64,000 nt of DNA, taken from contig LCKG01000003.1 in the NCBI GenBank assembly GCA_001001285.1, positions 27,746-91,745 on the forward strand. Direction: 5' to 3'. Source of the DNA: Parcubacteria group bacterium GW2011_GWC1_45_13 (GTDB taxonomy: Bacteria > Patescibacteriota > Minisyncoccia > UBA11713 > 2-01-FULL-45-33). Below are positions 4,849-42,229 of the stretch, one piece after another. The translations under genes and the position numbers were made by a program. Position 1 is the stretch's first letter. Each line of letters starts with the position of its first letter. The notes beneath the pieces are model-generated. The model was not told the origin of the DNA, searched no databases, and saw only the letters and a program-made list of their open reading frames with translations.

Positions 4849-4857
4849 TTATCCACA
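4849..4857 (+). promoter_or_regulatory. Perfect DnaA box TTATCCACA, 36 nt upstream of nrdJ
   Basis: Exact 9-mer consensus. One of four same-strand perfect copies in the window. Confidence 0.5.
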
Positions 4858-4892
4858 CTTGCGGGGGTTTGCGAGGAGTATAAAATAAGAGA

Positions 4893-7676
4893 ATGAGCGA
4901 GGCGGGAAGCGTAGTTTTTAAAGAGGAATCAAAGAAAGGCGCGCTGTTTGGAGCGCGCGGGCTTAATTTTAAGCGCTATTTTACTAAGGAAGGCGTCCAT
5001 CCCTATGATGAAATAGCGTGGGAAAAACGCGTTGCCCGCATCACCTCATCCAAAGGCGAGGTTATTTTTGAGCAAAAGGGCGTTGAGGCGCCGAAATTTT
5101 GGTCGCAGACGGCAACGGACATTGTCGCCGAGAAATATTTTATGGGGCATGTCGGCAAGCCCGGCAGGGAGTGGTCCGTAAAACAGCTTATAGACCGCGT
5201 TGCAAATACGATGGCGGACTGGGGCAGGCAAGGCGGTTGTTTCGCGGACGAAAAAGACGCGCAAATTTTCAACGAGGAGCTTAAATGGCTATTGGTCAAC
5301 CAGTACGCCTCATTTAATTCGCCGGTTTGGTTTAATGTCGGGGTTGAAAAGAAACCGCAGTGCTCGGCCTGTTTCATTTTGTCCATTACGGACGATAAAG
5401 AGTCCATTGCCGAATGGTATAGGACAGAGATGATGATTTTTTCAGGCGGCTCCGGCGCGGGAATAAATATTTCGCCTCTGCGCTCGTCCAAAGAAAATAT
5501 CGCCGGCCGCGGGAAATCGTCAGGCCCGGTGTCTTTTATGAAAGGAGCCGACGCGATTGCCGGCACAATCCGTTCCGGCGGCAAGACGCGAAGGGCGGCT
5601 AAGATGGTGATTTTAAACGCAAGCCACCCCGATATAAAAACTTTCATAGTTTCCAAATGGAAGGAGGAAGAAAAAGCAAAAGCGCTTATCTCTATGGGTT
5701 ATAACGACGACATTGACGGCGACGTCTATTCAAACATTTTTTTCCAAAACGCCAACAATTCCGTCCGCGCCACGGATGATTTTATGAACGCGGTTTTGGA
5801 AGACAAAAATTGGGAACTCCGAATGATAAAGACAGGCGAGGTTGCCGAGACATTAAAAGCAAGGGACCTTATGAAGCTCATCGCCGAGGCGGCTTGGCAC
5901 TGCGCCGACCCGGGCATGCAATTTGATACGACGATTAATAAATGGCACACCGCTCCCGCCGCAGGCCGCATCAACGGCTCCAACCCGTGCTCGGAATACA
6001 TGCACTTGGACGATTCCGCCTGCAATCTTGCTTCACTAAATCTTCTTAAATTTTTAAATCCGCCGGCTGGCGGAGGCAATTTTGACCACGAGGCGTTTAA
6101 AAAAGCCGTCGGCATTTTTATCACGGCGCAGGATATTACCGTGGACAATTCTTCCTACCCCACGGCTAAAATTGAACAAAACGCCCGCGCTTTCCGCGAA
6201 CTTGGCCTGGGGTACACGAATCTCGGCGCGCTTTTAATGCAGATGGGCTTTCCTTATGATTCAGACGCCGCGCGGGCTTGGGCGGCCGCGATAACTTCAA
6301 TGATGACCGGCGAGGCCTACAATATTTCCACGCGTGTTGCCGAAGCAGTCGGCCCATTTTCCGGATATGAAAAAAATAAGGAGCCGATGCTCGGCGTAAT
6401 CCGCATGCACGGCGAAGAAGCAAAAAAAATAAGCAAAAAGTATCTGCCGGCGGACGTTTGGGAATCCGCCCAAACGCCTTGGGCCGAGGCTCAAAAGCGC
6501 GGCCAGCTCTCTGGCGTCCGGAATTCCCAAGTGAGCGTTTTGGCGCCAACCGGCACGATTTCTTTCATGATGGACGCCACAACCACTGGCATTGAGCCGG
6601 CGTTTTCGCTCGTCGCCTACAAAAAAATGGTGGGCAGAGGATTTTTGAAAATCGCGAACACCTCCGTTGAGCCTGCGCTCAAAAATTTGGGATATAAAGA
6701 ACAAGAAGTCAAAGAAATAATGGATTATATTTTAGCGCATGACGGCATTGAAGGCGCCCCGCATCTTAAAGAAAAAGACATCGCCGTTTTTGATTGTGCC
6801 GTGAACGCCCCCGGCGGCAAGCGAGCCATCCATTATTCCGGCCACATCCGCATGATAGCCGCCGCGCAACCTTTCATTTCCGGAGCGATTTCCAAAACAG
6901 TGAATCTCCCCGAGTCGGCGACGGTTGAGGATATTATGAACACCTACATCGACGCTTGGAAAATGGGGCTTAAGGCGATCGCAATTTACCGCGACAAATC
7001 CAAAGGCGCCCAGCCCCTAAACACTTCCAAGGCAAAGCCATCAAGCGAAAGCGCTGTTGGTGCCAAAGAGGCCGCGCCGTCGGAAGTTGAAAGAAAAAAA
7101 TTGCCGTCAAACGTAAAATCTCTACGCCATAAATTTTCCATCGCAGGGCACGAGGGCTATATCCATTGCGGAATGTATGAAGACGGCAAATTGGGCGAAA
7201 TTTTTATCCGCGTGGCCAAAGAGGGCTCTACCATATCCGGTCTTCTGGATGCCATAGGCGTGCTCATGTCCGTCGCGCTCCAATCGGGAGTTCCGGTTGA
7301 AACTATCGTCAGAAAATTCGTCCATTCCCGTTTTGAGCCGGCCGGATACACAGAAAATCAGGATATTCCGGTTGCCAAATCAATTTTGGATTACATTGGA
7401 AAATTTTTAGCGCTCAATTTTCTTTCTCCAGATGACCAAGCTTCTTTCGGCATCTATTCGCATTCAAAAGAAGCGGAAACTGTCGTGGCGGAGCCTTTTA
7501 AGCTCAAAGAACAACCTAAGCTTTCCTCTCCGGCTTCCGTGCCAGCGGCGTACGACCGCGCTAAAATTTTCGCCTACCAGGATGCTCCCGCCTGCCGTTG
7601 CGGCGCGATTATGATCCGCACCGGCTCCTGCTACACCTGCCCCTCTTGCGGCGAAAACCTCGGGAGCTGCTCGTAG
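4893..7676 (+). CDS. nrdJ: Adenosylcobalamin-dependent (class II) ribonucleoside reductase
   Basis: Active-site region CSACFIL…; GGSGAGINISPLR…GPVSFMKG; C-terminal Cys-rich tail CRCGAIMIRTGSCYTCPSCG typical of NrdJ. 927 aa. Confidence 0.9.
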   Translation: MSEAGSVVFKEESKKGALFGARGLNFKRYFTKEGVHPYDEIAWEKRVARITSSKGEVIFEQKGVEAPKFWSQTATDIVAEKYFMGHVGKPGREWSVKQLIDRVANTMADWGRQGGCFADEKDAQIFNEELKWLLVNQYASFNSPVWFNVGVEKKPQCSACFILSITDDKESIAEWYRTEMMIFSGGSGAGINISPLRSSKENIAGRGKSSGPVSFMKGADAIAGTIRSGGKTRRAAKMVILNASHPDIKTFIVSKWKEEEKAKALISMGYNDDIDGDVYSNIFFQNANNSVRATDDFMNAVLEDKNWELRMIKTGEVAETLKARDLMKLIAEAAWHCADPGMQFDTTINKWHTAPAAGRINGSNPCSEYMHLDDSACNLASLNLLKFLNPPAGGGNFDHEAFKKAVGIFITAQDITVDNSSYPTAKIEQNARAFRELGLGYTNLGALLMQMGFPYDSDAARAWAAAITSMMTGEAYNISTRVAEAVGPFSGYEKNKEPMLGVIRMHGEEAKKISKKYLPADVWESAQTPWAEAQKRGQLSGVRNSQVSVLAPTGTISFMMDATTTGIEPAFSLVAYKKMVGRGFLKIANTSVEPALKNLGYKEQEVKEIMDYILAHDGIEGAPHLKEKDIAVFDCAVNAPGGKRAIHYSGHIRMIAAAQPFISGAISKTVNLPESATVEDIMNTYIDAWKMGLKAIAIYRDKSKGAQPLNTSKAKPSSESAVGAKEAAPSEVERKKLPSNVKSLRHKFSIAGHEGYIHCGMYEDGKLGEIFIRVAKEGSTISGLLDAIGVLMSVALQSGVPVETIVRKFVHSRFEPAGYTENQDIPVAKSILDYIGKFLALNFLSPDDQASFGIYSHSKEAETVVAEPFKLKEQPKLSSPASVPAAYDRAKIFAYQDAPACRCGAIMIRTGSCYTCPSCGENLGSCS

Positions 7677-7808
7677 CGGTATGGGCAAATAACATGGGCT
7701 TGCTCAATAAACACTTCTGGAAATTTTTCGCGGGGCTGATCGCGCTGATCTCTATTGGATTTTTAACGATTTACGCCACCGATTTTTACGCGAAAAAACA
7801 ATCTGCCG

Positions 7809-8087: not shown

Positions 8088-8098
8088 TTTATATATCA

Positions 8099-8124: not shown

Positions 8125-8149
8125 TTGCGGGGTGTGCTAGAATTTTATT

Positions 8150-8413: not shown

Positions 8414-8472
8414 TGCAATTTTTATGCTTTTATATTTTTGCTTATACCTTTTGTTGTGCTTCTTGTGTCTCG

Positions 8473-8620: not shown

Positions 8621-9325
8621 TTGAATATGTTGTTAGAAAAAGAAAAAAGAAAATCAGGTAACGAAGCAATACGCGTTTTAATTTCCTTAAAAACAAAGAT
8701 TTTGCGTGATTTAAAGGAAGTTGTTAATGCTGGCGATTTTGATTACCGCACTTTTGGTACAGCCATTGAAAAGCATCTTACTGATATTATTGTCAGTATT
8801 TTTGAGAAAGCCGGTTTTATTAAAAATAATAAAGATTATATCGTTGCACCCCATAAAAATTATTTTCCAGATTTCGAACTAAAAACAGCGCCACCCATCG
8901 CTATTGAGTTTAAATCCGGGAATAGAAATCAAAATAGACAGGGTAAATGGGCGACGGTTAAAAATAGCGAGAATGATATGGGCACTCTTAATGAATGGCC
9001 CAAAAGAATTAAAAAATTCGGTGGTAAAAATATTTATTATATTTTTGTTATCTATAATTTTAGTGAGAAAACAAAACAAGTTCAAAATGTTGAAATCGCT
9101 CCGTTTTATGAATTTTTAGGTTTGAACAAGTCCAAGTTTATTAAATATCGAGAAAAAGATGGAAATTTGCGGCCCAAAAATTTTGATGCTAAGCCGCCCA
9201 TTAAAACTTTTGAGCAATTTGAACAATTAATCAACAAAACCGCCGTTTATAGATCCAGGCGAATTATTAAGAAGCACAGACAAATTATAAAGGATGTGCA
9301 GAATATTAAAAAAGGGATGGATTAA
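8621..9325 (+). CDS. Putative Type II restriction endonuclease (PD-(D/E)xK fold) – hypothetical
   Basis: …YFPDFELKTAPPIAIEFKSG… gives PD-x12-EFK, a PD-(D/E)xK-like catalytic signature. Convergent with the MTase gene, overlapping it by 20 nt. AT-rich. No recognisable family beyond the motif. Confidence 0.45.
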   Translation: MNMLLEKEKRKSGNEAIRVLISLKTKILRDLKEVVNAGDFDYRTFGTAIEKHLTDIIVSIFEKAGFIKNNKDYIVAPHKNYFPDFELKTAPPIAIEFKSGNRNQNRQGKWATVKNSENDMGTLNEWPKRIKKFGGKNIYYIFVIYNFSEKTKQVQNVEIAPFYEFLGLNKSKFIKYREKDGNLRPKNFDAKPPIKTFEQFEQLINKTAVYRSRRIIKKHRQIIKDVQNIKKGMD

Positions 9326-10868
9326 TTGGTTTACTATTCTGCTTTGTGCCGTAAGTTAATTTAGGATTATCTATAGGATAGATCCCTTCGTTCTCGGATA
9401 TAGTCAAATTTCTTAAATATTTTGATGCCGTTTCAGGCGCGTCGTTGTTATACTTATAACCATTACTTGAACGATAATTAACCTTTTTAAGTTTATCCGC
9501 AACGATTTTTTTATATTTTGGGTCTATATCAATACCAATATAATTTCGGCCTAGTCTTTTTGCTGCCAAAGCTGTTGTACCAGCACCGATAAATGGATCT
9601 AAAATAACATCGTTTTCATCTGTAGTCATAAGAACCAGACGTTCAAGTAATGGTTCGGGGAGTTGGCACGGATGAGCGTCCCTGCGCGTATTATGTCTTA
9701 TGCGATGTATATCCGCCCAAACATCGCTCAAAAGAGTCCCGTGCGGGTGTATTTGGCTTTTCTTGCCCCCATAGTCTTTAATCATTTCACCACAAGTTCG
9801 GCATTTTTTATGCGGCGATCTAAGTTCATGGAATTTAAATCCCTTGGGGGTTTTTGTATAAAATAGTATTCCATAGTGTGCTGGCAACAAAGTTTTTCCC
9901 AGAGGCGTACTCATTGAATCCCATGCTATCCAGTGTTTAAAGATAGCAATTTTGTTAAGATGGTTGGCATAATAAATTAACCACTTTGGTATATTGTGAA
10001 CCAAAATCGAACCCGTTGGTTTAGTTATTCTGACCATTTCGGTTAACCATTGCTCGCACCATTTTATATAATCCTCCGCAACCCTTTTATCTTTATAGTT
10101 TCCGTATTTTTTGTTTAGGTTAAATGGCGGGTCGGCAAAAGTCATATCAATTGAGTTATCGGGTATTTTTCTCATCTCCTCAATTGAATCTCCACACAAA
10201 ATTTCGTTTAATGGAAGTTTTTTGTATTGTTTTGTTTCAGTTTTGATTTCCGGAAAAATAATAGATATGGGCGTTTCCTCTCGAATAACATCTAGCACAA
10301 TCCCTTGAATAGCTACATCCCGCCCATTTCTGAAAATAAGAGGTTCCATATTTTTATTAGCCGGCTGTAAACGGATATATCCGTGCTCTTTATAGAATTT
10401 TTTTAAGGTTGCTTCGTGGTTATCTATAAGAGCTACTACTTTTTGCCCATTTTCGGCAGTTTCTTGTTGGCGCACCAAAACAACGTCGCCATCGTTGATA
10501 TTTTCATCAATCATACTATTCCCGACAACGCGGAGAGCATAAACCTCCGATGAGGAGGGAATTTTACTTTTCGGGACGGCTATGGTTTCTCTTTGTTCCT
10601 CAAATACATGGATTGGCTCACCGGCGGCTATTGTTCCCCATAAAGGAATTTTTACTAGCTTCTCCGACGAGGATATTTCAATGCCTCTTTTCTGATTTTT
10701 TTGCCGCTGTAAATAACCCTTATTTTGCAGTGCCATTAAATGTTGATGAATTGTGGATATAGCCAAGCCCATCCTTTGCCCCATTTCTTTAATGGAGGGC
10801 GCAAAGCCGCGCTTTTTGGTGTAGGAGGTTACAAAATCTAACACCTGTTTTTGCCTGGGGGTAAGCAT
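9306..10868 (-). CDS. LexA repressor (wHTH + S24 autopeptidase) fused to beta-class N6-adenine/N4-cytosine DNA methyltransferase
   Basis: LexA half (N-terminal ~200 aa): LTPRQKQVLDF…; Ala-Gly cleavage site in GTIAAGEP; LRVVGNSMIDENINDGDVVLV (nucleophile Ser); ATLKKF (general-base Lys); IQGIVLDVIR. MTase half (C-terminal ~320 aa): motif IV DMTFADPPF precedes motif I DPFIGAGTTALAAKRLGRNYIGIDID (beta-group order); CxxC…HPH insert. Single uninterrupted 520-aa ORF. Confidence 0.8.
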   Translation of the reverse strand: MLTPRQKQVLDFVTSYTKKRGFAPSIKEMGQRMGLAISTIHQHLMALQNKGYLQRQKNQKRGIEISSSEKLVKIPLWGTIAAGEPIHVFEEQRETIAVPKSKIPSSSEVYALRVVGNSMIDENINDGDVVLVRQQETAENGQKVVALIDNHEATLKKFYKEHGYIRLQPANKNMEPLIFRNGRDVAIQGIVLDVIREETPISIIFPEIKTETKQYKKLPLNEILCGDSIEEMRKIPDNSIDMTFADPPFNLNKKYGNYKDKRVAEDYIKWCEQWLTEMVRITKPTGSILVHNIPKWLIYYANHLNKIAIFKHWIAWDSMSTPLGKTLLPAHYGILFYTKTPKGFKFHELRSPHKKCRTCGEMIKDYGGKKSQIHPHGTLLSDVWADIHRIRHNTRRDAHPCQLPEPLLERLVLMTTDENDVILDPFIGAGTTALAAKRLGRNYIGIDIDPKYKKIVADKLKKVNYRSSNGYKYNNDAPETASKYLRNLTISENEGIYPIDNPKLTYGTKQNSKPINPSLF

Positions 10869-10909
10869 ATTTTAATTTTAGCAGGTATATACCGAAAGAA
10901 AACCGAAAG

Positions 10910-10918
10910 TTATCCACA
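10910..10918 (+). promoter_or_regulatory. Perfect DnaA box TTATCCACA in the divergent promoter region of the LexA-MTase gene
   Basis: Exact 9-mer, 42 nt upstream of the minus-strand start codon. Flanked by the direct repeat ACCGAAAG-aaa-ACCGAAAG (10893..10908). Confidence 0.45.
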
Positions 10919-11012
10919 ACCATTAAAAAGGCGCTTGAATAAAAACCTAAAATCCACTAAGATTTAGGGGATTTGTAACCGGGTCGACAAAAAATTAGGA
11001 GAGTAAATTTTT

Positions 11013-11678
11013 ATGTCAGAATCAATAAATATTAACGATGTTTTTAAAGAAATAGAAAAGTCTGATAAGTCAGAATATCATCGCGGTAAATCTTGGGAAC
11101 ATTGTTATATTTTTTTCAGAAACTATAAAAAATTCGGAAGTGATAAGTTGATGGCAGATTACGCAGCGCTACATTTGGGTTTTTTTCTAGCTAGTTGGGG
11201 GATGTTGCGTGGTTCGAGCTTTTTGTTGCAGAAAGATTACAGATACTTCCTTCCGGTTGTTCGCGTATTGATAAAAGACCAATATAAAGTTTTGTGGAAT
11301 GTTGGCTATTTAAATTTGAACAAAAATCAAGAAAGCGAAATTATTGATATCTTGTTTTGGTTAAAAGACGACATTTGTAAAGTTATGACTCACAATAATC
11401 CTGACGGTAGAAAACCAACCGATTTGTTGATAACAAAAATTATAATGGCCACGATGGGCTGCGTGCCCGCTTATGATCAATATTTTAAGGCCGGTCTTAA
11501 GAGGCGTGGAATTAAAAATAACTTCAGCAAAAAAGCCTTCATAGATTTATTGAATTTCTCGAGAAAAAAACTAGAAAAACTTTATATCAAAAAACAGCCT
11601 ATTAAAGGGACAAATTATAATTATCCTACAGTGAAACTTATAGATTTATACTTTTGGCTTTTAGGTTCGCAAAAATAA
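11013..11678 (+). CDS. Hypothetical protein (divergent from LexA-MTase gene)
   Basis: 221-aa ORF with no recognisable motifs. AT-rich. Shares the 144-bp intergenic region with the LexA-MTase promoter. Confidence 0.6.
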   Translation: MSESININDVFKEIEKSDKSEYHRGKSWEHCYIFFRNYKKFGSDKLMADYAALHLGFFLASWGMLRGSSFLLQKDYRYFLPVVRVLIKDQYKVLWNVGYLNLNKNQESEIIDILFWLKDDICKVMTHNNPDGRKPTDLLITKIIMATMGCVPAYDQYFKAGLKRRGIKNNFSKKAFIDLLNFSRKKLEKLYIKKQPIKGTNYNYPTVKLIDLYFWLLGSQK

Positions 11679-12074: not shown

Positions 12075-14461
12075 AAATTATTTAATAGCCAATTAATATC
12101 TTCTTTTAATAAGTTGTAAGCTTGGTCGTTGATGTTTTTGGGATGTTCTCGTTCCAATTCGGCAAGGAACGTTTTTAACGTCTTTTGAGTGATGGGTTTG
12201 TTGTGGATATCTATCCTCTCTAATTTCCCAATCAGAGTGTTTTTAACGCTCTTTTTGGTTATCCACCCCAAAGAATACACGCGCTCAATATCGGAGATTG
12301 TACTCTGGATAGTCGCAATGACACGGAACACCGTCTCTTGATTCGCGAAGTTTCCTACAAAATCAACGGAGTTTACTGCAACCTTATGCTCTCCCAACTT
12401 CTCAAAGAATAAATCAATTATATCGCCGTTCTTTACCATTCTATCATCAAATTTAATCTCTGCGGAGGCAATGCCGGATTCCACATCGCCCACATCCACG
12501 TTTATGAAAATGGTTTCGGAGCGGAGATAATCGCGGGAGACAGGGGAAAGGATATTAATGCTTGGCGGGGTTACATCTTTTGGTTTTATTTCTAAATCGG
12601 TAGGGCTTTCGTTGTTTACTTTTAAGTCCAACTCCGTAATTAATCCGGGCTGGGTTTGGGAGGTATAGTCTTTATCCACAGAGATATTATCTGAAATATA
12701 GCCCGTGGCGATGGTATATTCGCCGCTTCCGGTTCCTTGAGCTTCAATTTTATATTCGCCGTCCAATGGATTAGGGATAGTTATATATTCGTCGTCCGTA
12801 AGAAATCCGGAATAAAACGCGCCATCAATTTGATTAATTTCGTTCCCGCTCGCGAAGTCTTTGCCAATTCTTTTCCCGTCCGGCGCAGTTACTAAAACAT
12901 CAACAGGGGAGAGGATTTTGATGAGGAGGAGTTTCGGATTTATCGATAAGCCATGATCAATCAAGATTGCGGCATTTGCGCCAGTAAGTTTTTTGAAGAT
13001 TAAGCCCTCGGCATTTGTTGGTAACGCATTATGCCCTGAAATCAATTGATTCAAATCACTTACTATAAATTCTCCGCTGCCAGCGGGTACAGTTCCGTCG
13101 CCGAATCCAAATTCAAAGCCTCTATCTGCTGTTGAGCCATCAAATCCATCTGGATAACCATTTTCCCATAAAGGAGTACTGGGAGAATTCACAACTCTAA
13201 TAGCATTTAGAGTGCTGTTATCTCCCAAATCGCCGACTACATTAGTAATTTTTATATTTTTATCAAAAAGACTTAAAACGCTGGTTTTAAGATTTTCAAG
13301 AAAAGTATTTTGAGGATAATTATTTGGATAAGTACGCAACGTTCCGCTATCTTTATCGCGTAGGTAATTGTAAGTTGGGAGAAGTTCTTGGACAGAAGAA
13401 ATTGGTTTGTTTCTTACATAATCAAATAGACTAGAGTACCTCGCCTTTTTAGCTTCTCTACCTAAAACAAATTTCATAAACCAGTCTCTTAGTCTTTCGC
13501 CGGTGTTGCCTGTTTTTGTACCAATCTCACCCGCTTCCCACATAAGATAAGCAAAAGGAGCCCCTAAATGCGGCGTTCCTAAAAAGATCAGTTGGTCAAC
13601 GTCGTTTTCGTAGTTGCCCGACTGGATGTATTGGCGCGCGACGAGGCCGCCCATGGAATGGGCAACAAGGTCAACTTTCGCGCAGTGGCAAACATTTTGG
13701 ACTTCGTTTATTTTGTCGCGAAGCTGGACGGCGGTAATCACATTAGATTGCCGCCAATCGTACGGAAAAGTGAAAAGATCTTTGCCGTCAACATATCCGT
13801 TGGCTTTTAAGGTCGCAATCAGGTCGTCATAGGTATGAAAAATCGGGTCAATCACCCAGACGCCGTTTTTGTCCGACGAGCCCAAAATCCCGGGAATGAT
13901 TATGACGGGGTCTGGCTTTGCTGGCGCTTGTATGGCGCTTTTTATATCAAAATGGATTAAGGCATGCTGGAAATCACCAATCCCTTTTTCAAATAAATCC
14001 ACTGTTTGCGCGGAGCTGGACGCGTCCGAAACGGCTACGAAAAAAGACTGGTTTGTCCCCAGCGGCATTTTAATTATGCCGTCAACGTTTCTATTGGCAC
14101 CGTCGCAGGAAAAGAGAGGAAAGTTAGAGCCAGCTTGGTAAAGCTTGGAATGGCCGATTTCATTACCTCTTGTTCCGTCATAAGTAAAAACATCAAAGCG
14201 AGGATTCAGAATATTGCCATTCGCACATTTGCTGTATACTTGTATGGCGGCAGGAGTTGTAGAGCCGATTAAGGTAAGTGGAAAACAATCCGTGCTGGAG
14301 TTAATTAGGCGCAGAAGCTCCCAGTTGTTCAGCGGCCCGGTAAACTCCGTGATAAACGTGCAGTCGCTCGATTGCAAAGAAGCATAATCCGCGAAGGCAA
14401 TTTGTGCCGTAAGCAGGGCGTAAACAGCGAAAAAAATGGTTAAAGCGTGTTTTCGCATTGC
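12071..14461 (-). CDS. Secreted lipase/esterase-like alpha/beta hydrolase (GxSxG)
   Basis: Signal peptide MRKHALTIFFAVYALLTAQIAFA (start taken at the second Met). Lipase nucleophile elbow VAHSMGGLV. About 800 aa with a long C-terminal beta-rich region. Confidence 0.7.
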   Translation of the reverse strand, partial: AMRKHALTIFFAVYALLTAQIAFADYASLQSSDCTFITEFTGPLNNWELLRLINSSTDCFPLTLIGSTTPAAIQVYSKCANGNILNPRFDVFTYDGTRGNEIGHSKLYQAGSNFPLFSCDGANRNVDGIIKMPLGTNQSFFVAVSDASSSAQTVDLFEKGIGDFQHALIHFDIKSAIQAPAKPDPVIIIPGILGSSDKNGVWVIDPIFHTYDDLIATLKANGYVDGKDLFTFPYDWRQSNVITAVQLRDKINEVQNVCHCAKVDLVAHSMGGLVARQYIQSGNYENDVDQLIFLGTPHLGAPFAYLMWEAGEIGTKTGNTGERLRDWFMKFVLGREAKKARYSSLFDYVRNKPISSVQELLPTYNYLRDKDSGTLRTYPNNYPQNTFLENLKTSVLSLFDKNIKITNVVGDLGDNSTLNAIRVVNSPSTPLWENGYPDGFDGSTADRGFEFGFGDGTVPAGSGEFIVSDLNQLISGHNALPTNAEGLIFKKLTGANAAILIDHGLSINPKLLLIKILSPVDVLVTAPDGKRIGKDFASGNEINQIDGAFYSGFLTDDEYITIPNPLDGEYKIEAQGTGSGEYTIATGYISDNISVDKDYTSQTQPGLITELDLKVNNESPTDLEIKPKDVTPPSINILSPVSRDYLRSETIFINVDVGDVESGIASAEIKFDDRMVKNGDIIDLFFEKLGEHKVAVNSVDFVGNFANQETVFRVIATIQSTISDIERVYSLGWITKKSVKNTLIGKLERIDIHNKPITQKTLKTFLAELEREHPKNINDQAYNLLKEDINWLLNNL

Positions 14462-26151: not shown

Positions 26152-26178
26152 TGCGTATCTTCATGTTATAATTAATCC

Positions 26179-30402: not shown

Positions 30403-30457
30403 GCATTAAGTATATATCCTATATACACAATGTCAATACCTCGTATTTGTGGATATC

Positions 30458-35793: not shown

Positions 35794-36519
35794 GTGAAGT
35801 TGACCCCGTTAGAAGTAAACTTTATAAATAAGGTTGCCGATGTGTTGTCCACATATCGGACTTCTAACGGGGTTGACTCTAAAATTAATCGGATTAGACT
35901 TCCACTTATCAATATGTTTGACGAGCTGAAACAAAGGGCGCTCAAAATTACTGAAGCGTTATACCGGACGACCGACCTTTTTTCAGACGCAGAGCCCTTG
36001 AAATGGGCTTTAAGAAAGGAAGCTCTGGAAGTGTTAAACGTCAAACCCCAAGATGTTGTATTGCTTGAGGCTACGGTAAAAAACATATTGCTCAAGCTGG
36101 AGCTGGCTGCCTGCGGGACGTTCATTTCTAAGAAGAATTTCGATGTTTTGGGTAGGGAGTATAAAAGTTTGCTGGAAGAAGTTATGTCAGGCAAATCCGA
36201 TTACCGGCATCTATTGGACACAATTCTAATGGACATAAAATCTAACGGACGAGCAGATACATCTATCGGACACATTGAAGTTAAATCTAAATCTGCGGTT
36301 GTTTTGAAACCCAGTAACAGACCCACCTTTCGGTCGGGCAGGCAAGAAACGCTAATTTCAACATTAAAAGAAAAGGGTCGCTTGAGTGTTGGAGATTTAG
36401 CCAAGGCGCTAGGGGAGCCGGTCAGCGACAAAACAGTCCAAAGAGAGCTTACAACATTAGTAGCTTCGGGGGCGGTAAAGCAGGACGGAGACAAGCGCTG
36501 GAGGAGATACTTTATTTAG
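35794..36519 (+). CDS. Hypothetical protein with C-terminal DeoR-like winged HTH
   Basis: C-terminal …RQETLISTLKEKGRLSVGDLAKALGEPVSDKTVQRELTTLVASGAV. N-terminal domain unassigned. Confidence 0.5.
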   Translation: MKLTPLEVNFINKVADVLSTYRTSNGVDSKINRIRLPLINMFDELKQRALKITEALYRTTDLFSDAEPLKWALRKEALEVLNVKPQDVVLLEATVKNILLKLELAACGTFISKKNFDVLGREYKSLLEEVMSGKSDYRHLLDTILMDIKSNGRADTSIGHIEVKSKSAVVLKPSNRPTFRSGRQETLISTLKEKGRLSVGDLAKALGEPVSDKTVQRELTTLVASGAVKQDGDKRWRRYFI

Positions 36520-36538: not shown

Positions 36539-36547
36539 TTATCCACA
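36539..36547 (+). promoter_or_regulatory. Perfect DnaA box TTATCCACA
   Basis: Exact 9-mer in the 400-bp intergenic region. Confidence 0.4.
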
Positions 36548-36924
36548 ATCGGCGCTTGTATTGGCTTTTGTGGGTTATGTTATACTGAAAATAAGTGGAA
36601 ATGAGGCCAAATGTCCGCTAGCTGGCGGAGGTTTTCTTGGCTTATGACATCCGGTTGAGTCCTGCTAAAGTTGGCGGAACGGCTGGATGTCAGAAGCCGA
36701 GCCTCGCCTAGCGAGTCTAGGCGGGCTATAAATAAGCCTGCTTCTGAAAAGAAGAGAACCTTGAAAAATAAATAAGAGCATAAAAACAGTAAATTAAATT
36801 TTGATTTTATCAGTTGCGAACAAACGGTCGAATGTAAAATTATTAGTTTAGTCAAAAGACCAATCACGATGCTTTGTCGAAGGCGTCTATAAATTGGCCA
36901 AATTAATTAATAGGTTAATAAATC

Positions 36925-39906
36925 ATGAATAGAAAAATATCTTTAGCTTTAGTGAGCATGAGTACAGCTGTTTTGCTTTCGGGCGCAACCATTGCGATTC
37001 CGCTTGTAGCCAGCGCCGCGCTCACAGAAGCTCAAATTCAGTCCATCCTCTCGCTTTTGCAGTCGTTTAACACCGACCAAACAACTATCAACAATGTTAA
37101 TAGTTCTTTGCGCGGTCAGGCGACTTCCGGAAGCGCGGGAACATCCGCGGCTTGCACTTTCACTCGCGATCTTACGATGAGAGCACGAGGAGACGACGTA
37201 ACCTGCTTGCAAAACTACTTGATCTCAACCGGTCACTTCACTTTTGCCGACGGCGCTACAGGATACTTTGGGTCTGTAACCCAATCAGCCGTTTCTGCTT
37301 GGCAGGCGGCCAATGGAGTTTCTCCGACCGCAGGGTACTTCGGCTCAATTTCAAGAGCCAAGTATAACAGCATGGCTCCTTCCACTCCGGCGCCAGCGTC
37401 AACTCCAACTACTACGGGAGGCACGCCCGCCGCTGTACCGGCAGCCGCTGGAACATTAAGGGTTGAGGCCGGCGTTCAACCGAACGCAAGTCTTCTCCCG
37501 ATCAATTCCACCCGCGTTCCTTTCACCGTTGTTAAGTTCACGGCGCCGTCCGGAAACGATGTCACTGTAAACTCTTTGGTGGTGCAAAGAACCGGTCTGG
37601 CAAATGATGCCGCTCTATCCGGAATTGTCCTTTTGGATGAAACCGGCGCGCAGCTCGGCATCGCCAAGACTCTTAACTCTTCCCACCAAGCCACGCTTTC
37701 TGAACCTTTCGTCGTAAAAGCGGGCACGACCCGGACTATGACATTGGCAGGAAACGCCGAGACTGCCAACGGCAGTTTGGCCGGACAGGTAGTGTACATT
37801 TCCCTGGTCACGGTTAATTCCTCCGCGGCTACTGTTGACGGTGTTTTGCCGATTTCGGGAGCCGGACACACGGTTAACGAATCTTTGACCATTGGTTCGG
37901 TTACCTTGCAGAGAGGTTCTCTTGACCCGGGATCTTCGGTTACCAAAAAAGTCGGCGAAACGGATTACACTTTTTCTTCGGTTAAAGTAACCTCCGGTTC
38001 AGCCGAAAAAATTTACTTGAGATTCATTAGATGGAACCAAACTGGTTCTATCGGCACGGCAGACTTAGCCAACGTAAAAACTTACGTTGACGGCGTAGCT
38101 TACGACACGGTTGTAAGCTCCGATGGCAAGTACTTCACGGCCACCTTTTCCGACAACGGAGGAAAAGGTATTCTGATAGACAAAGGATTCTCCAAAGAAA
38201 TGTCTATCAAGGGCGACATTGTCGGAGGTTCAGGCAGAACCATAGACTTTGACCTTGCCAAACGGACCGACATCGGTTTGCTGGGAGAAAACTACGGCTA
38301 CGGAATAACTCCTCCGCAGACCGGAGCAACTGACCCGACTGACGACACAGCTGCGTTCAGTTCTACAGAAGACCCGTGGTATGATGCCGCGCAGGTCACT
38401 GTTTCCAACGGTTCAATCACGGTATCTGGAGCTACTTCAATCCCTGCTCAAAACATCGCCATCAACCTGGCAAATCAGCCCATGGGAGGATTTACGATTG
38501 AAGTGAAGGGCGAACAGATTTCGGTTGGCAAAATGATCTTCTACTTTATGGCTACTTCTACTTCCGGCACCGGCAGTACCGGCGTTGCGGGGACTGCTAT
38601 CACGAATATTTCCTTGTATGACGCTAATGGCGCGGTTGTGGCAGGTCCGGCGGATGGAGTCGTTGTTAAAAACGGCCATGGAAAAGTGACATTCACCGAT
38701 ACGGTTACTTTCCCAATCGGCACGGCCGTCTACCAATTGAAAGGCAAGCTCTCCACCACTTTCGTGAACAACAACACGGTGCAGGCTTCCACCACGCCCA
38801 GCGTTGACTGGACGACGGTTAAGGGGCTTACCACCGGAAACAGTATTACCGGTTCTACCGCTGTTGTAACGGCCAACCAGATGACCGTGAAAGCCGGCGC
38901 GCTTACTGTTAGCGTTTCCTCTGTCCCGATTGCCCAGACGGTAATCGCGGGAGTCCAGCAATTCCTCTTTGCCAATTACATTTTGGACGGCACGGGCTCG
39001 GGTGAGGACTTGCGGCTTACCAATATTCCGATTGCCTACGATTTCTCCACCGGCGGAGCCGCCGCGGATGTGACCAACTGTAAGCTTTATGACGGAACGA
39101 CCGTTGTAAACACTACAGGTGTCAATCCAACGTTAGCCGCGTCTTCCACCAGCTTCACCTTTACCGGCAACGGATTAATCATTGCCAAGGGCACATCAAA
39201 AACCTTAGCTCTCAAATGCGATTTGATCGCGGGAGCCGCTTCTGCCAGCAGATACGCTTGGGGCTTAGGTGGCGCTGACGCCGACAACGCCGCTCATTCC
39301 AACGACTGGACCGGCGTTACCGGATTAACTTCGGGACAAACCATTGCTCAAACCGCTAACGACTCAACCGGTCAGTATATGACAGCCGCTACCGGAGGTT
39401 CGATCGCCGCGGTTCTTGACACCAACAGTCCTTCCTACAAGATTGTGGGAGCCGGGCAGACGGGAGTTGAACTTGCCAAAATCAAGTTCAGCGCTACCAA
39501 TGAAGACATTGACCTTAAACAATTAGCTCTGCTTGTTAGCAGCAATGCTTCCAACACGCCGGTTAACTTGGTAGGCAGGCAGGTGACTTTGTGGGACGGC
39601 GCGAGCCAAATCGGAACGGCTATCTTCCCAGACGGAGACAACGCCACTTCCAGCCAAATCGCCGTGGGCTCGTTCAGAATTCCAAGAGACGGAGCTAGAG
39701 TGCTGACCATTAAAGGAGACATTGCGGCAATCACCACCTCCGGCCCTATGGTCCAATCTGGCGATTTGCTCATTGTTGACTACGATGGAGCCAACACAGG
39801 TCTCAACGGCAACTACGGCACTGGAGTCGCTTCTGGCAGTACGGTTCCCGAGCGTGACTTACCAGAGCATTCCGACTACCATTTTGCCGGCTGGAACAAC
39901 CGCTAA
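36925..39906 (+). CDS. Large secreted cell-surface protein with peptidoglycan-binding (PG_binding_1-like) domain and multiple Ig-like/beta-sandwich repeats – N-terminal reading frame
   Basis: Signal peptide. TFTRDLTMRARGDDVTCLQNYLIST…GYFGSVTQSAVSAWQAANGV is a PG-binding motif. Long Thr/Ser/Gly-rich repeats. Confidence 0.7.
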   Translation: MNRKISLALVSMSTAVLLSGATIAIPLVASAALTEAQIQSILSLLQSFNTDQTTINNVNSSLRGQATSGSAGTSAACTFTRDLTMRARGDDVTCLQNYLISTGHFTFADGATGYFGSVTQSAVSAWQAANGVSPTAGYFGSISRAKYNSMAPSTPAPASTPTTTGGTPAAVPAAAGTLRVEAGVQPNASLLPINSTRVPFTVVKFTAPSGNDVTVNSLVVQRTGLANDAALSGIVLLDETGAQLGIAKTLNSSHQATLSEPFVVKAGTTRTMTLAGNAETANGSLAGQVVYISLVTVNSSAATVDGVLPISGAGHTVNESLTIGSVTLQRGSLDPGSSVTKKVGETDYTFSSVKVTSGSAEKIYLRFIRWNQTGSIGTADLANVKTYVDGVAYDTVVSSDGKYFTATFSDNGGKGILIDKGFSKEMSIKGDIVGGSGRTIDFDLAKRTDIGLLGENYGYGITPPQTGATDPTDDTAAFSSTEDPWYDAAQVTVSNGSITVSGATSIPAQNIAINLANQPMGGFTIEVKGEQISVGKMIFYFMATSTSGTGSTGVAGTAITNISLYDANGAVVAGPADGVVVKNGHGKVTFTDTVTFPIGTAVYQLKGKLSTTFVNNNTVQASTTPSVDWTTVKGLTTGNSITGSTAVVTANQMTVKAGALTVSVSSVPIAQTVIAGVQQFLFANYILDGTGSGEDLRLTNIPIAYDFSTGGAAADVTNCKLYDGTTVVNTTGVNPTLAASSTSFTFTGNGLIIAKGTSKTLALKCDLIAGAASASRYAWGLGGADADNAAHSNDWTGVTGLTSGQTIAQTANDSTGQYMTAATGGSIAAVLDTNSPSYKIVGAGQTGVELAKIKFSATNEDIDLKQLALLVSSNASNTPVNLVGRQVTLWDGASQIGTAIFPDGDNATSSQIAVGSFRIPRDGARVLTIKGDIAAITTSGPMVQSGDLLIVDYDGANTGLNGNYGTGVASGSTVPERDLPEHSDYHFAGWNNR

Positions 39907-40531
39907 CGTTAAGCTGTATAGATACAGCGTGACTGCCAATAACGGCGACGTGGCTCTATTTAAGCAAAGCTTCGTTATCGGATCTTCCACCTTATTGGCT
40001 ACAACTTCGCTCTTCGGCTTGTATGCTTACACAGACGCGGGTTACAGCAGCGTTGACACAGCCTTTTCTTCAACTGGATTGATTAACGCAGGCACTTGTA
40101 TCAATGGAGCAGGCCCAGTTGACGGCAATTCCGGCGCGACCAGCACCATAAACGTTGATATCTACCCGGCCAAGACTACCTGTAGCAGTGCTACTACGAC
40201 CTATATAATTTCCAGCGGCGTGACCAGATACTTTGAATTGCGGGCAACCGTGTCCAATGTATCCGCGGTTTCCACCAGCAAGGATTCCATCTCAGCCTAC
40301 CTGGATGGAGACGCCGCTTTCCCAACGGTCGTTCCTGGTTCAGGCGGACTTTTGGGCAGCTCTATGGCTAACGCGACTCAAGTGAACACCGATGCCAACA
40401 GAGATTTCATCTGGTCGCCAGTATCATCCACAACGCAAAACACCATCTTTGACCAGGACTTCACCAATGGTTACCAGATTGTAGGATTGCCTTCCATCGG
40501 TACGCAGACAGTGACTCTGCAGTCCGACTAA
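39848..40531 (+). CDS. C-terminal continuation of the surface protein in +1 frame (frameshift near 39845..39860)
   Basis: The same repeat style continues (…PSVTYQSIPTTILPAGTTANVKLYRYSVTANNGDVALFK…) in the other frame. Suggests a single roughly 1200-aa gene interrupted by a frameshift, either authentic or an assembly error. Confidence 0.5.
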   Translation, partial: PSVTYQSIPTTILPAGTTANVKLYRYSVTANNGDVALFKQSFVIGSSTLLATTSLFGLYAYTDAGYSSVDTAFSSTGLINAGTCINGAGPVDGNSGATSTINVDIYPAKTTCSSATTTYIISSGVTRYFELRATVSNVSAVSTSKDSISAYLDGDAAFPTVVPGSGGLLGSSMANATQVNTDANRDFIWSPVSSTTQNTIFDQDFTNGYQIVGLPSIGTQTVTLQSD

Positions 40532-40566
40532 AGTTTGCTTGGCTTGTGAACTAGCGAACTTTTTCC

Positions 40567-40598
40567 AAAAAGCCCCCTTTACGGGGGCTTTTGGTTTT
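40567..40598 (+). terminator. Rho-independent terminator
   Basis: AGCCCCC-tttac-GGGGGCT followed by TTTTGGTTTT. Confidence 0.7.
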
Positions 40599-40613
40599 GA
40601 TATTATATAATTT

Positions 40614-41288
40614 ATGTCTAGAAATAATACGATAGCGGTTATAATTTTTGCGGTTTTAGCGGCTGGTGCGGCGGGTTTTTTAACATTTCGCTCCTCAACA
40701 TCCGATGTTAAATCCCAAAAAACATCGGATGTTTTCCCGCGAAATATGGAGGAGGGCAATTCAATCTCTGATGGGATTAAACCCCCGGCTCCGGCTCCGC
40801 AAAATGACGAACTCAATGCTCTTAAAACCGCTGCGCTAGAAAGAAAAATCCCCACGGGGAACGAGGCGGCAACAAAAGAATTAAAAGATTTATCTTCGCA
40901 ATTAAAAAGCGAACCGAATTATATTCAAGGCTGGCTCCAGCTCGGAATCTTAAGAAAATATTTGGGCGATTACGAAGGGGCCAGTTTGGCTTGGCAATAT
41001 GCAACATTTTTGCGCCCGCAAGACTATATCGCTTTTTCCAATCTAGGAGACCTCTATCATTATTATCTGCGTGATTTTCCCAAAGCGGAAAGATACTTGC
41101 GAAAAGCCGTGGATGTGAAGCCCGATTATGTCGCGGGATATAAAAATCTCTTTGACCTTTACATGCTTTCTTACAAAGAAAAGGAAAATTTAGCCGAGCC
41201 CGTTTTACTCGAAGGCATCAAAAAAAATCCTGATGACCATTACCTAGAAACTATTTTAGTTTCTTATAAAAATGATAATCAACGCTAG
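40614..41288 (+). CDS. TPR-repeat protein with N-terminal TM anchor
   Basis: TPR units (YIQGWLQLGILRKYLGDYEGASLAWQYATFLRPQDYIAFSNLGDLY…). Confidence 0.65.
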   Translation: MSRNNTIAVIIFAVLAAGAAGFLTFRSSTSDVKSQKTSDVFPRNMEEGNSISDGIKPPAPAPQNDELNALKTAALERKIPTGNEAATKELKDLSSQLKSEPNYIQGWLQLGILRKYLGDYEGASLAWQYATFLRPQDYIAFSNLGDLYHYYLRDFPKAERYLRKAVDVKPDYVAGYKNLFDLYMLSYKEKENLAEPVLLEGIKKNPDDHYLETILVSYKNDNQR

Positions 41289-42132
41289 AAAAATCAGCTA
41301 TATTTTTTCCGGAGTGTTGGTGGCCTCAAGTTTTTTGGTTTTGGGTGTTTGGGGGTTGAAACTGGGCATTGATTTTACCGGTGGGACTTTGATGGAAGTT
41401 GAATTTAAAGATTCGCGCCCAGATATAAATTTGCCTGATGTAACTATCCAGACAGCCGGGGAAGGGGGACTGATTTTGCGAATGCCAGCTATTGATGAGG
41501 CAAAACACCAAACAATACTCGCCGAGCTGCGCAAATATGGCGAACTGGAAGAAAAACAATTTACTTCAATTGGGCCGACAATCGGCGCGGAGCTTAAAAA
41601 GAATTCCATTTATGCCATCGTTTTGGTAATGATAATGATCGCGCTTTATATCGCCTGGGCTTTTCGGGAGGTTTCCAGGCCGGTGCAATCTTGGAAATAC
41701 GGCGTGGCGGCGTTGATTGCTTTGATCCACGATGTTTCCATCCCCGCTGGATTTTTCGCACTCTTGGGGTATTTTTACGGCGTGGCGGTAGACACGCTTT
41801 TTGTGACGGCGCTTCTTACGATTTTGGGATTTTCCGTGCACGATACAATTGTGGTTTTTGATCGCATCCGGGAGAATTTAAAAAAATTAGGAGCCAAAGA
41901 AAATTTTGAGAATGTTGTTGAGCAAAGCTTGCGCCAGACCATCGGCCGGTCAATCAATACCTCTCTTACTGTGATGATAGTGATGCTGGCGCTTTACTTT
42001 TTGGGCGGGCTCTCCACTAAATTTTTCGCCCTTACCATTTTGATAGGCGTCTTCTTCGGCACATATTCCTCCATCTTCATCGCCAGTTTTCTCTTGGTCA
42101 CATGGCACAAGTGGGGCTTAAAGAGGGCTTGA
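41272..42132 (+). CDS. secF: Protein translocase subunit SecF
   Basis: GIDFTGGT…; six TM helices; conserved HDVSIPAGFFALLG…LGFSVHDTIVVFDRIREN. 286 aa. Confidence 0.85.
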   Translation: MIINARKISYIFSGVLVASSFLVLGVWGLKLGIDFTGGTLMEVEFKDSRPDINLPDVTIQTAGEGGLILRMPAIDEAKHQTILAELRKYGELEEKQFTSIGPTIGAELKKNSIYAIVLVMIMIALYIAWAFREVSRPVQSWKYGVAALIALIHDVSIPAGFFALLGYFYGVAVDTLFVTALLTILGFSVHDTIVVFDRIRENLKKLGAKENFENVVEQSLRQTIGRSINTSLTVMIVMLALYFLGGLSTKFFALTILIGVFFGTYSSIFIASFLLVTWHKWGLKRA

Positions 42133-42220
42133 CTTATTTTGGGGGTCTGATAGAATAGGATTTATTGTCGATGGAGGCTCCGACGCTGCGGTCGGAGAGC
42201 CGACCCCAAGGGCGTCGGCT

Positions 42221-42229
42221 TTATCCACA
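42221..42229 (+). promoter_or_regulatory. Perfect DnaA box TTATCCACA upstream of rpoB, preceded by two CCGAC/GTCGG hairpins (42178..42220)
   Basis: Exact 9-mer. Hairpins CTCCGAC-gctgcg-GTCGGAG and AGCCGAC-N9-GTCGGCT. Confidence 0.45.

Follow-up and report, generated by a model that had tools for sequence, protein, structure and literature searches.

Do exact copies of the canonical DnaA box, TTATCCACA, placed just ahead of genes serve as sites through which the replication initiator could act on transcription? The question is raised by the window, the whole 64,000-nt stretch of DNA that was analysed, for which an earlier note had listed four same-strand copies, all in promoter regions, and had read them as DnaA-linked regulation of nrdJ, an R-M module and rpoBC. 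The source organism is a Giovannonibacteria-like member of the Paceibacterota (CPR) with a reduced genome, an ultra-small groundwater bacterium.

Number and placement of boxes in the window

With the motif set before counting, we found that the + strand of the window carries six exact copies of TTATCCACA and the - strand none. The four listed earlier (4849, 10910, 36539 and 42221) are among them as exact + strand matches, while two copies (12672 and 58416) had been missed. Two further exact copies were found in the same-genome flanks (17.9 kb), giving a density of 8 in 82 kb, or about 1 per 10 kb. The copies are as follows:

4849..4857, + strand, exact box 5 nt past the upstream stop and 35 nt ahead of the nrdJ ATG
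10910..10918, + strand, exact box between the divergent LexA-MTase gene (9306-10868, - strand) and orf221 (11013-11678, + strand)
12672..12680, + strand, box inside and antisense to an 811-aa lipase-like gene (LCAT and PGAP1 domains; - strand)
36539..36547, + strand, exact box 20 nt past the stop of an HTH gene (35794-36519) and 386 nt ahead of a giant PG-binding gene (36925 onward)
42221..42229, + strand, exact box 10 nt upstream of the rpoBC -35 and 161 nt ahead of the rpoB ATG
58416..58424, + strand, box inside and antisense to a PaaX_M/Cas2-like gene (58067-58633, - strand; Pfam), with no promoter after it
L088:6515, + strand, flank copy 2 nt past the T2SSF stop and 92 nt ahead of a type IV pilin gene
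L088:6384, - strand, flank copy within T2SSF

Dinucleotide shuffles gave an expectation of 0.25 copies for both strands together, and none of 100 shuffles reached six; under order-3 and order-4 Markov models the expectation was 0.60-0.69 (P 4e-5 to 8e-5). Among all 9-mers of the window, taken blind, TTATCCACA came only about 7th to 11th in over-representation. Its 8-mer core, TATCCACA, was the most over-represented 8-mer, with 11 observed against 1.5 expected (P 7e-7), seven of them on the + strand and four on the - strand.

Placement within the genome was non-random. The four sites listed earlier are all intergenic, and with the flanks the intergenic share is five of eight, in DNA of which about 90% is coding. 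Each of these five is followed after 1-16 nt by a -35 region and is oriented to the downstream gene. The description of every site as a promoter site does not extend to the two added copies, both of which lie within genes, where chance would give about 0.5 copies, and fit a chance origin; the copy at 58416 is compatible with either chance or a titration role. The single-strand pattern likewise holds for the window but breaks just outside it, at L088:6384 (- strand), and reflects co-orientation with the downstream genes rather than a property of the chromosome strand.

The exact copies in the window and flanks match the DnaA-box consensus in full, and variants at orthologous positions in relatives fit the relaxed form TTWTNCACA. 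Those variants (TTTTCCACA, TTATTCACA, TTGTCCACA and TTATCCAAA) are known degeneracies of the DnaA box.

Boxes at nrdJ and other loci

The box at 4849 directly adjoins the following features:

4859..4886, + strand, inferred nrdJ promoter with a weak -35 (TTGCGG, 4859-4864), a 16-nt spacer and a -10 (TAAAAT, 4881-4886)
4893..7676, + strand, nrdJ, a class II B12-dependent ribonucleotide reductase of 927 aa (Pfam Ribonuc_red_lgC 2e-139, Ribonuc_red_2_N, TSCPD)

The box abuts the inferred promoter at about -44 to -36 from the inferred start site, 23 nt upstream of the conserved -10. Only 6 nt separate this -10 from the ATG (4893), which implies a leaderless mRNA, and a TAAAAT or TAGAAT hexamer is kept 5-6 nt ahead of the ATG in six relatives (L093, L095, L096, L098, L115 and L128). 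Because the promoter scored below the threshold of the consensus promoter scanner, the promoter call rests on this conservation and on the leaderless pattern. Leaderless promoters of this kind recur across the window.

A perfect nrdJ box was observed at -45 to -72 from the ATG in lineages with 85, 81 and 72% NrdJ identity, and the one-base variants TTGTCCACA, TTATCCACT and CTATCCACA hold its place in other lineages, such that a box, exact or with one tolerated change, is kept by essentially every lineage sampled between 85% and 65% identity. Two distant low-GC lineages (48-50% NrdJ identity) also carry a box, 8-9 nt upstream of a TTGACA. This positional conservation supports the earlier suggestion of DnaA regulation with nrdJ as its most plausible target.

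Box placement was conserved at four loci. The sites at 10910 and 36539 stand out as conserved islands when the nearest relatives are compared. A near-perfect copy was also observed on the - strand of the window. Features are as follows:

10935..10963, + strand, inferred orf221 promoter (TTGAAT, 17-nt spacer, TAAGAT)
30448..30456, - strand, near-perfect box ATATCCACA, 11 nt upstream of TTGACA-16-TATACT, followed after 6 nt by the ATG of a RelB/YafQ toxin-antitoxin operon

The 10910 box, which stands 95 nt ahead of the orf221 ATG and 42 nt from the opposite-strand ATG of LexA-MTase, lies within an 83-bp conserved island that is the sole DNA-level similarity to L093 (12144-12219) downstream of nrdJ. 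The orf221 promoter hexamers and the subsequent TTAGGGGATTT are identical in L093; this promoter, too, scored below the scanner's threshold. The R-M module of the earlier note is itself a fusion of LexA with a methyltransferase, and no restriction enzyme was confirmed for it. At 36539, the orthologous spacer of L007 has otherwise diverged, and GTTATCCACAAT is the longest stretch that stays identical; the box there lies at L007:3673. The promoter orthologous to that of the RelB/YafQ operon in L099 has GTGTCCACA at the same spacing from TTGACA as the 30448 box. In one relative (L053) a box was observed 24 nt ahead of mraZ.

The rpoBC box and its recurrence in relatives

The box at 42221 precedes the genes for the RNA polymerase core:

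42240..42267, + strand, rpoBC promoter (TTGACA, 16-nt spacer, TAAAAT), matching 11 of 12 consensus positions in the promoter scan
42382-45657, + strand, rpoB (Pfam RNA_pol_Rpb2 domains)
45664-49272, + strand, rpoC (Pfam RNA_pol_Rpb1 domains)

A hairpin of -33 kcal/mol directly precedes this box.

We compared the motif across 1.41 Mb from 80 species-level relatives. In their coding DNA, TTATCCACA occurred at chance level (10 observed, 9.4 expected), whereas intergenic DNA other than that before rpoB held 11 copies against 1.25 expected (9-fold, P 9e-8) and the 500 nt before rpoB held 20 against 0.63 (32-fold, P 2e-23). Copies were divided between the strands (21 + and 20 -). A general excess of the 9-mer with no promoter bias, the outcome that the earlier note had set against its own reading, was therefore the opposite of what was found, and the proposed reach to rpoBC gains support from the same counts. 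An unbiased k-mer count upstream of rpoB placed TTATCCACA as the third most recurrent 9-mer element, behind a leader motif and the -35. Together with the conserved nrdJ, 10910 and 36539 sites, the intergenic and rpoB enrichment marks the placement as maintained.

A perfect box was present within 500 nt upstream of rpoB in 19 of the 80 species, and a box with at most one mismatch in 43. The closest relative (L007) has no perfect box within 250 nt upstream of rpoB; tolerated variants occupy the place of the rpoB box in L008, L011 and L012. The order box, -35, -10 was also observed in eight relatives (L009, L013, L014, L026, L059, L066, L067 and L085). The rpoB box is always near the promoter and mostly upstream of the -35; in L053 it lies over the -10, and in L047 and L084 it falls within the spacer. 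Turnover of a transcription-factor site would be expected to leave such variation in spacing and orientation near a promoter. At rpoB, at nrdJ and in relatives, the box thus lies within or adjoins core promoter elements.

Single boxes and the search for an origin-type cluster

No second box beyond random expectation was found within 0-6 bp of the sites, where the best candidates had 3-5 mismatches, as at random positions. In E. coli, in vivo DnaA binding mostly needs boxes paired 2-3 bp apart, and 13 of the 32 perfect single boxes in the 4.6 Mb genome were occupied (PMC11317965); the window sites lack pairs of that spacing. Neither the dnaA gene nor the oriC of the lineage was found among 172 loci (2.4 Mb), and none of these loci had four boxes within 500 bp. 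Most of the window has a positive GC skew, and the cumulative skew rises without a minimum. An oriC/datA/DARS-type cluster was considered and rejected, as the copies are spread (neighbours 1.7-24 kb apart), no dnaA is nearby and the skew does not switch.

Discussion

We consider it probable that these sequences act as transcription-factor sites, each a single DnaA box of high affinity, with DnaA inferred as the binding protein. DnaA would bind isolated TTATCCACA 9-mers beside the sigma-70-type promoters of a small gene set. Predicted targets are nrdJ (dNTP supply), rpoBC (RNA polymerase core), the type IV pilin gene, the giant peptidoglycan-binding surface protein and the divergent lexA-methyltransferase/orf221 pair, with the RelB/YafQ operon as a weaker candidate. 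As the amount of free DnaA and its nucleotide state shift through the replication cycle, box occupancy would couple promoter output to replication status, and the recurrence of box placement in many related species suggests that replication status probably tunes these genes.

The sign of regulation may differ between targets. The nrdJ box, next to a weak -35 and with its centre near -40 of the leaderless promoter, has a position like that of a class II activator; at low or moderate levels, DnaA would thus be expected to activate, as it does at E. coli nrdAB. At rpoBC, the near-consensus promoter and the movement of the box into the spacer or onto the -10 in other species suggest dampening or repression at high DnaA levels.

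Several alternatives were weighed against the use of the boxes in transcription. DnaA may bind, but the boxes may mainly control DnaA itself, as titration or reservoir sites (datA-like, as in the initiator-titration model), or act as roadblocks or insulators between transcription units, without regulating the downstream promoters. The density of about 1 box per 10 kb, against 32 in 4.6 Mb of E. coli, would make a substantial DnaA sink in a genome of about 1 Mb, and two or three copies are intragenic. Boxes 5, 2 and 20 nt past upstream stops, and the rpoB box directly past a hairpin, would also suit this reading. Pure titration needs no gene-specific placement, yet the same promoters (rpoB and nrdJ) keep boxes across species, coding DNA shows no box excess, and a box in the rpoB spacer or on the -10 in some species must affect transcription. 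We therefore regard this explanation as unlikely.

It is quite improbable that some other lineage-specific protein recognises TTATCCACA, which would then match the DnaA consensus by coincidence. In favour of this reading, each site is a lone, asymmetric 9-mer, several regulators are encoded in the window, of which the nearby PaaX-like, HTH and LexA-fusion regulators would be candidates, and DnaA is itself a presumed reader of the boxes. However, the match covers all nine canonical box positions and the variants at orthologous positions follow known DnaA-box degeneracy. LexA-type and most HTH regulators recognise palindromes, whereas TTATCCACA is not palindromic. The motif also precedes nrdJ at 48-50% NrdJ identity as well as ribonucleotide reductase (RNR) genes in E. 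coli, which would be hard to explain by a lineage-specific factor; this pairing of motif and RNR target across phyla points to DnaA, the one universally conserved factor.

A chance or compositional origin, with the 9-mer common in the genome and promoter proximity incidental, is very hard to sustain: the modest blind rank and the two intragenic copies would fit it, but the motif was specified before the count, no shuffle reached six, the enrichment in relatives is confined to intergenic and rpoB-upstream DNA, and positions are conserved at four loci. A strand-polar, replication-oriented motif of the KOPS or Chi type, suggested by six of six window copies on the G-rich + strand under positive GC skew, can be dismissed, as a - strand copy lies 1.7 kb outside the window, four of 11 core 8-mers and about half the copies in relatives are on the - strand, the excess is confined to intergenic DNA, and orientation follows the downstream gene, including the 30448 site on the - strand before a - strand operon.

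If DnaA is the regulator, a broader proposal can be put forward tentatively: across the Paceibacterota, DnaA might act through single boxes as a major global regulator in reduced genomes poor in transcription factors, with rpoBC as the most widely conserved target alongside nrdJ and a regulon reaching the type IV pilin and giant surface proteins for host attachment. Were this true, transcription capacity, dNTP supply and the episymbiotic surface programme would all depend directly on the potential for replication initiation.

Comparison with known systems

DnaA is established as a transcription factor and its control of ribonucleotide reductase is textbook in E. coli; the mechanism class is not new. 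To our knowledge almost nothing is known of gene regulation in the Candidate Phyla Radiation, and we know of no described DnaA regulon that includes rpoBC, pilin or giant surface-protein genes. In the literature searched we found no DnaA box linked to an rpoB promoter, and three aspects appear to be unreported there: a DnaA regulon of the Candidate Phyla Radiation drawn from comparative genomics, rpoBC as a DnaA-box target that recurs (with the strongest signal in the 80 species) and a dependence on perfect boxes that stand singly, not in pairs or clusters. Confirmation of this regulation would offer a concrete, testable way into how ultra-small bacteria that are uncultivated link transcription capacity and nucleotide supply to replication, and a ready cis-element for reporter or DAP-seq work in the few cultivable Patescibacteria.

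In B. subtilis and Caulobacter crescentus, DnaA is a global or cell-cycle transcription factor with targets in replication, nucleotide and cell-cycle functions, and as in those regulons the boxes here lie at promoters beyond dnaA and oriC; B. subtilis targets have clusters of several boxes, whereas these are isolated. The datA, DARS and oriC clusters use this 9-mer too, and presumably bind the same protein, but differ in their clustering and in the present sites having no dnaA nearby.

The rpoBC box has its closest parallels in the E. coli rpoH and dnaA promoters, where DnaA represses at or near core promoter elements. As there, a transcription-machinery gene would be under DnaA control, and the rpoB boxes in the spacer or on the -10 (L047, L084 and L053) resemble that repressor-type placement. 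The window rpoB box differs in lying upstream of the -35 with no overlap, and the target is the RNA polymerase core (beta and beta-prime), unlike rpoH, which encodes a sigma factor.

For nrdJ, the parallel is with E. coli nrdAB and nrdDG, which are bound by DnaA in ChIP-seq (PMC11317965), and whose regulation is dual, with activation or repression by DnaA level and nucleotide state (PMC8203912). In both settings an RNR promoter has a consensus TTATCCACA close ahead of its -35, which would tie dNTP synthesis to the initiator. E. coli nrdAB has a pair of boxes spaced 3 bp apart plus a DnaA-ATP box, whereas nrdJ has one box ahead of a weak -35 and an apparently leaderless promoter, and encodes a class II (B12-dependent) enzyme in a CPR bacterium.

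Organism and copy number of the DnaA box

Rifle-aquifer contigs, GCA_000998195.1 and a 112-kb JGI contig among them, encode the RpoB found in the window. Its nearest species-level relatives were Candidatus Giovannonibacteria and other Paceibacterota (60-78% identity), which identifies the source as a reduced-genome CPR bacterium.

Four exact same-strand DnaA boxes had been described in an earlier note from the sequence alone; all four are exact and on the + strand, but our search of the window for TTATCCACA returned six copies, at 4849, 10910, 12672, 36539, 42221 and 58416, with none on the - strand. Dinucleotide-preserving shuffles of the window contained a mean of 0.25 copies on the two strands together, with 0 of 100 attaining six, and order-3 and order-4 Markov models gave an expectation of 0.60-0.69 (P 4e-5 to 8e-5). 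Taken as an unselected 9-mer it came no higher than about 7th to 11th among the 9-mers of the window; it had, however, been fixed before counting as the DnaA consensus. The 8-mer core, TATCCACA, was the top over-represented 8-mer in the window (11 observed vs 1.5 expected, P 7e-7; 7 on the + strand and 4 on the -), and the one-mismatch form ATATCCACA was observed at 10752(-), 12202(-), 30448(-), 57760(+) and 62202(-). Extending the same genome past the window by 8.6 kb and 9.4 kb (flanks that include locus L088) added two perfect copies, L088:6515(+) and L088:6384(-), for a total of eight in 82 kb. The placement of these copies, from gene calls and Pfam matches, was as follows.

Perfect DnaA boxes in the window and its flanks
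4849, +: inside the 48-nt gap from an ASCH-like gene to nrdJ (class II ribonucleotide reductase)
10910, +: in the spacer that separates orf221, a 221-aa ORF, from the divergent gene (9306-10868, -) of a LexA-DNA-methyltransferase fusion
12672, +: within a lipase-like gene (- strand)
36539, +: 20 nt past an HTH gene and 386 nt ahead of a giant PG_binding protein gene
42221, +: between secF and rpoB
58416, +: within a PaaX_M/Cas2-like gene (- strand)
L088:6515, +: 2 nt past the T2SSF stop and 92 nt ahead of a type IV pilin gene
L088:6384, -: within T2SSF

Five of the eight copies lie in the ~10% of the DNA that is non-coding (binomial P about 1e-3), and all five are upstream of the next gene and co-oriented with it. 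The intragenic + strand copies, 12672 and 58416, fit chance (about 0.5 expected, P about 0.1). The gene harbouring 58416 is one of three PaaX_M/Cas2-like small-protein paralogues in about 25 kb (50316-50816, 58067-58633 and L090 1254-1826). An Rfam scan of the window found tRNAs only.

Conservation at rpoB and nrdJ

Among 80 species-level rpoB loci (1.41 Mb) we observed 41 perfect copies, 21 on the + strand and 20 on the -. Twenty of these lay within 500 nt upstream of rpoB, in 19 of the 80 species, and 43 of the 80 had a box with at most one mismatch in that interval. Promoter placement was set against a general excess of the 9-mer by comparing three classes of DNA in the 80 loci, each against its own order-3 composition. 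Coding DNA was at chance while intergenic DNA and the region upstream of rpoB were enriched, which favours promoter-specific placement, the opposite of the outcome that the earlier note had named as refuting.

Perfect boxes by class of DNA in 80 rpoB loci
Coding DNA: 10 observed, 9.4 expected, P 0.47
Other intergenic DNA: 11 observed, 1.25 expected, P 9e-8
rpoB upstream 500 nt: 20 observed, 0.63 expected, P 2e-23

In an unbiased k-mer count of the rpoB upstream regions the box came third, behind a leader motif, GATTGAGT, and the -35. In most species it preceded the -35 by 4-30 nt and could face either way; elsewhere it lay within the -35/-10 spacer (L047, L084), on the -10 (L053) or in the 5' UTR (L062, L071). 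Close relatives carried variants at the matching place, namely TTTTCCACA (L008), TTATTCACA (L012) and TTGTCCACA (L011). Across these loci the rpoB box behaves as a putative transcription-factor site, kept at the gene through turnover of its exact position.

The sense-strand motif GATTGAGT was observed 10-25 nt past the rpoB -10 in 47 of 79 Paceibacterota species, exceeding both the -35 and the DnaA box in frequency, with examples just downstream of the -10 in L009, L015, L034, L043, L047, L059, L066, L080 and L084. Its counterpart in the window (about 42270-42295) has diverged to cgTTTTGAATAc. We regard GATTGAGT as a candidate un-annotated regulatory element of the rpoB leader.

The box was also observed at nrdJ in loci taken from a metagenome scan, including distant low-GC lineages.

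Boxes at nrdJ in other lineages, with NrdJ identity
Perfect box, -45 to -54 from the nrdJ ATG: L093 (85%); L095 and L169 (81%); L099 and L128 (72%)
TTGTCCACA: L115 (78%)
TTATCCACT: L096 (74%) and L104 (65%)
CTATCCACA: L098 (73%)
Perfect box at -178 and an ATATCCACA: L101 (70%)
Perfect boxes 8-9 nt upstream of a TTGACA-type -35: L123 and L147, distant low-GC lineages (48-50%)

Conservation at other sites

An 83-bp island around 10910, holding the box, the -35 and the -10, was the sole DNA-level similarity to L093 downstream of nrdJ. At 36539 the orthologous spacer of L007, the nearest relative, has diverged, and GTTATCCACAAT is the longest block still identical. Intergenic boxes away from rpoB in relatives precede mraZ, a mechanosensitive-channel gene and a TPR-protein gene, as well as the genes for three surface proteins of very large size (PG_binding, 1201 aa; LVIVD, 1795 aa; Big_5, 1448 aa). 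Perfect boxes at L007:3673, L057:1675, L075:18790 and L010:21137 lie 50-410 nt ahead of genes for very large proteins, secreted or on the surface (the PG_binding, LVIVD and Big_5 proteins just listed and a further one of >650 aa); these parallel the box at 36539 and the one before the pilin gene, L088:6515.

The earlier note had placed the 10910 box at an R-M module, a label that was not confirmed: the methyltransferase shares one protein with a complete LexA, and no restriction partner could be established. The gene at 9306-10868 (-) joins a full-length LexA (TIGR00498, 5e-59; LexA_DNA_bind and Peptidase_S24) to a beta-class N6/N4 DNA methyltransferase (N6_N4_Mtase, 4e-51; type II or CcrM-like). 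L083 contains homologues (40% identity across 500 aa), and the corresponding position in L093 is taken by a 513-aa ORF. No family match was found for orf221, and the convergent orf234 gave only a marginal REase_II match (E 0.0075). A direct repeat, ACCGAAAG-AAA-ACCGAAAG, at 10890-10909 abuts the box upstream (kept in L093 in the form ACCCGAAGG-AAA-CCCGAAG) and is possibly the operator of another regulator, e.g. the LexA fusion.

The PG_binding gene downstream of 36539 is a single 1224-aa ORF in two other same-species assemblies (L001, L002) and is in two parts in the window (36925-40531), an ORF of 993 aa at 36925-39906 and one of 269 aa at 39722-40531, which indicates a frameshift, repeat-length variant or strain variation. 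The 386-nt gene-free spacer ahead of it (36548-36924) contains a terminator-like hairpin (36614-36629), a promoter-like site (36644-36671) and islands conserved with L007, among them TTGGCTTATGaCAaCCG, and may represent either a small RNA or a long 5' UTR.

Promoter architecture

Only the rpoB promoter was backed by the consensus scanner (TTGACA-16-TAAAAT, 11/12 positions, 42240-42267, 10 nt past the box). The nrdJ and orf221 promoters fell below it, and as candidates they rest on conservation. Downstream of the nrdJ box come TTGCGG, a 16-nt spacer, TAAAAT, 6 nt and the ATG, and a TAAAAT/TAGAAT hexamer 5-6 nt ahead of the ATG is kept in seven other lineages. The 10910 box precedes TTGAAT-17-TAAGAT, with the same elements conserved in L093, and the ATATCCACA at 30448(-) is 11 nt upstream of TTGACA-16-TATACT, with the ATG of a RelB/YafQ operon 6 nt further on.

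A -10 hexamer followed by 6-7 nt and ATG was observed at at least 12 of 58 window ORFs, and a Shine-Dalgarno-like sequence at only 7. The hexamers ahead of start codons were of the form TAnnnT, often TAAAAT, TATAAT or TAGAAT.

Examples of the interval from -10 hexamer to start
4881-4892: nrdJ
8135-8149
10869-10880, -: lexA-methyltransferase
26164-26178
30403-30414, -: relB
51332-51346: ftsK
59088-59102

Leaderless mRNAs look common in this Giovannonibacteria-like genome. Because of the conserved hexamer spacing and the window-wide design, nrdJ is most likely leaderless, with its box centred near -40.

Distances from box to -35 varied (1, 16, 8, 10, 7 and 11 nt), so the 9-mer is a separate site outside the core promoter. 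No site had a second box above random-position background within 0-6 bp on either side, in either orientation.

A further promoter-like site overlaps the secF stop: TTGACT-16-TAGAAT (10/12 positions), preceded by a TG. L014 shares its -10, TGATAGAAT. The strong hairpin after this site (-33.4 kcal/mol, z -3.0) takes in the start of the DnaA box with its 3' arm, and this region (42129-42235) could be a secF terminator or a short upstream transcript.

Discussion

Our data show a cis-element that is conserved, associated with promoters and identical in sequence to the DnaA consensus, and comparative genomics at rpoB, nrdJ and other sites backs the original reading of these boxes as probably functional. 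We infer DnaA to be the binding protein because the match spans all nine positions, because orthologous variants obey the known DnaA-box degeneracy, and because the motif is paired with a ribonucleotide reductase promoter not only here but also in distant lineages and in E. coli, a recurrence that only a universally conserved factor would explain.

DnaA on a single high-affinity box beside a promoter would modulate RNA polymerase recruitment. The weak -35 of nrdJ and a box centred near -40 would favour activation, while the near-consensus promoter of rpoBC, with relatives' boxes in repressor-type positions, would favour dampening at high DnaA.

The main rival role is titration of DnaA. The density of about 1 box per 10 kb, compared with 32 per 4.6 Mb in E. 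coli (PMC11317965), suggests that the boxes would also act in this way. A chromosome-polar motif of the KOPS or Chi kind was rejected from the - strand copy 1.7 kb outside the window, the 4 of 11 core 8-mers on the - strand, the even split in relatives (21 + vs 20 -) and the limitation of the excess to intergenic classes. Box orientation follows the downstream gene, since the - strand 30448 site precedes a - strand operon; the box-bearing promoters in the window happen to drive + strand genes. An oriC or datA-like cluster was rejected, with boxes not clustered and both a dnaA gene and a skew switch absent; searches for Walker-A and domain-IV signatures in 172 loci (2.4 Mb) and the window found no dnaA or oriC of the lineage. 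A longer repeat or mobile element was dismissed, as the flanks of the six window copies share only the 9-mer and a preference for A or G at position 10.

That DnaA can act as a transcription factor, and that it regulates ribonucleotide reductase genes, is already known. Our literature search did not find 'DnaA box' combined with Patescibacteria, or a DnaA box at an rpoB promoter, and for the CPR it gave solely a mention of DnaA-box-like repeats at a Peregrinibacteria origin. Apparently new here are a putative DnaA regulon in CPR bacteria, with a single-box architecture, and rpoBC as an unexpected, widely conserved candidate target. In E. coli, DnaA occupies nrdA and nrdD sites in ChIP-seq (PMC11317965) and can either activate or repress nrdAB (PMC8203912). 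The E. coli protein prefers pairs of boxes 2-3 bp apart, with only 13 of its 32 perfect single boxes occupied (PMC11317965), whereas single boxes were observed at all of the sites described here.
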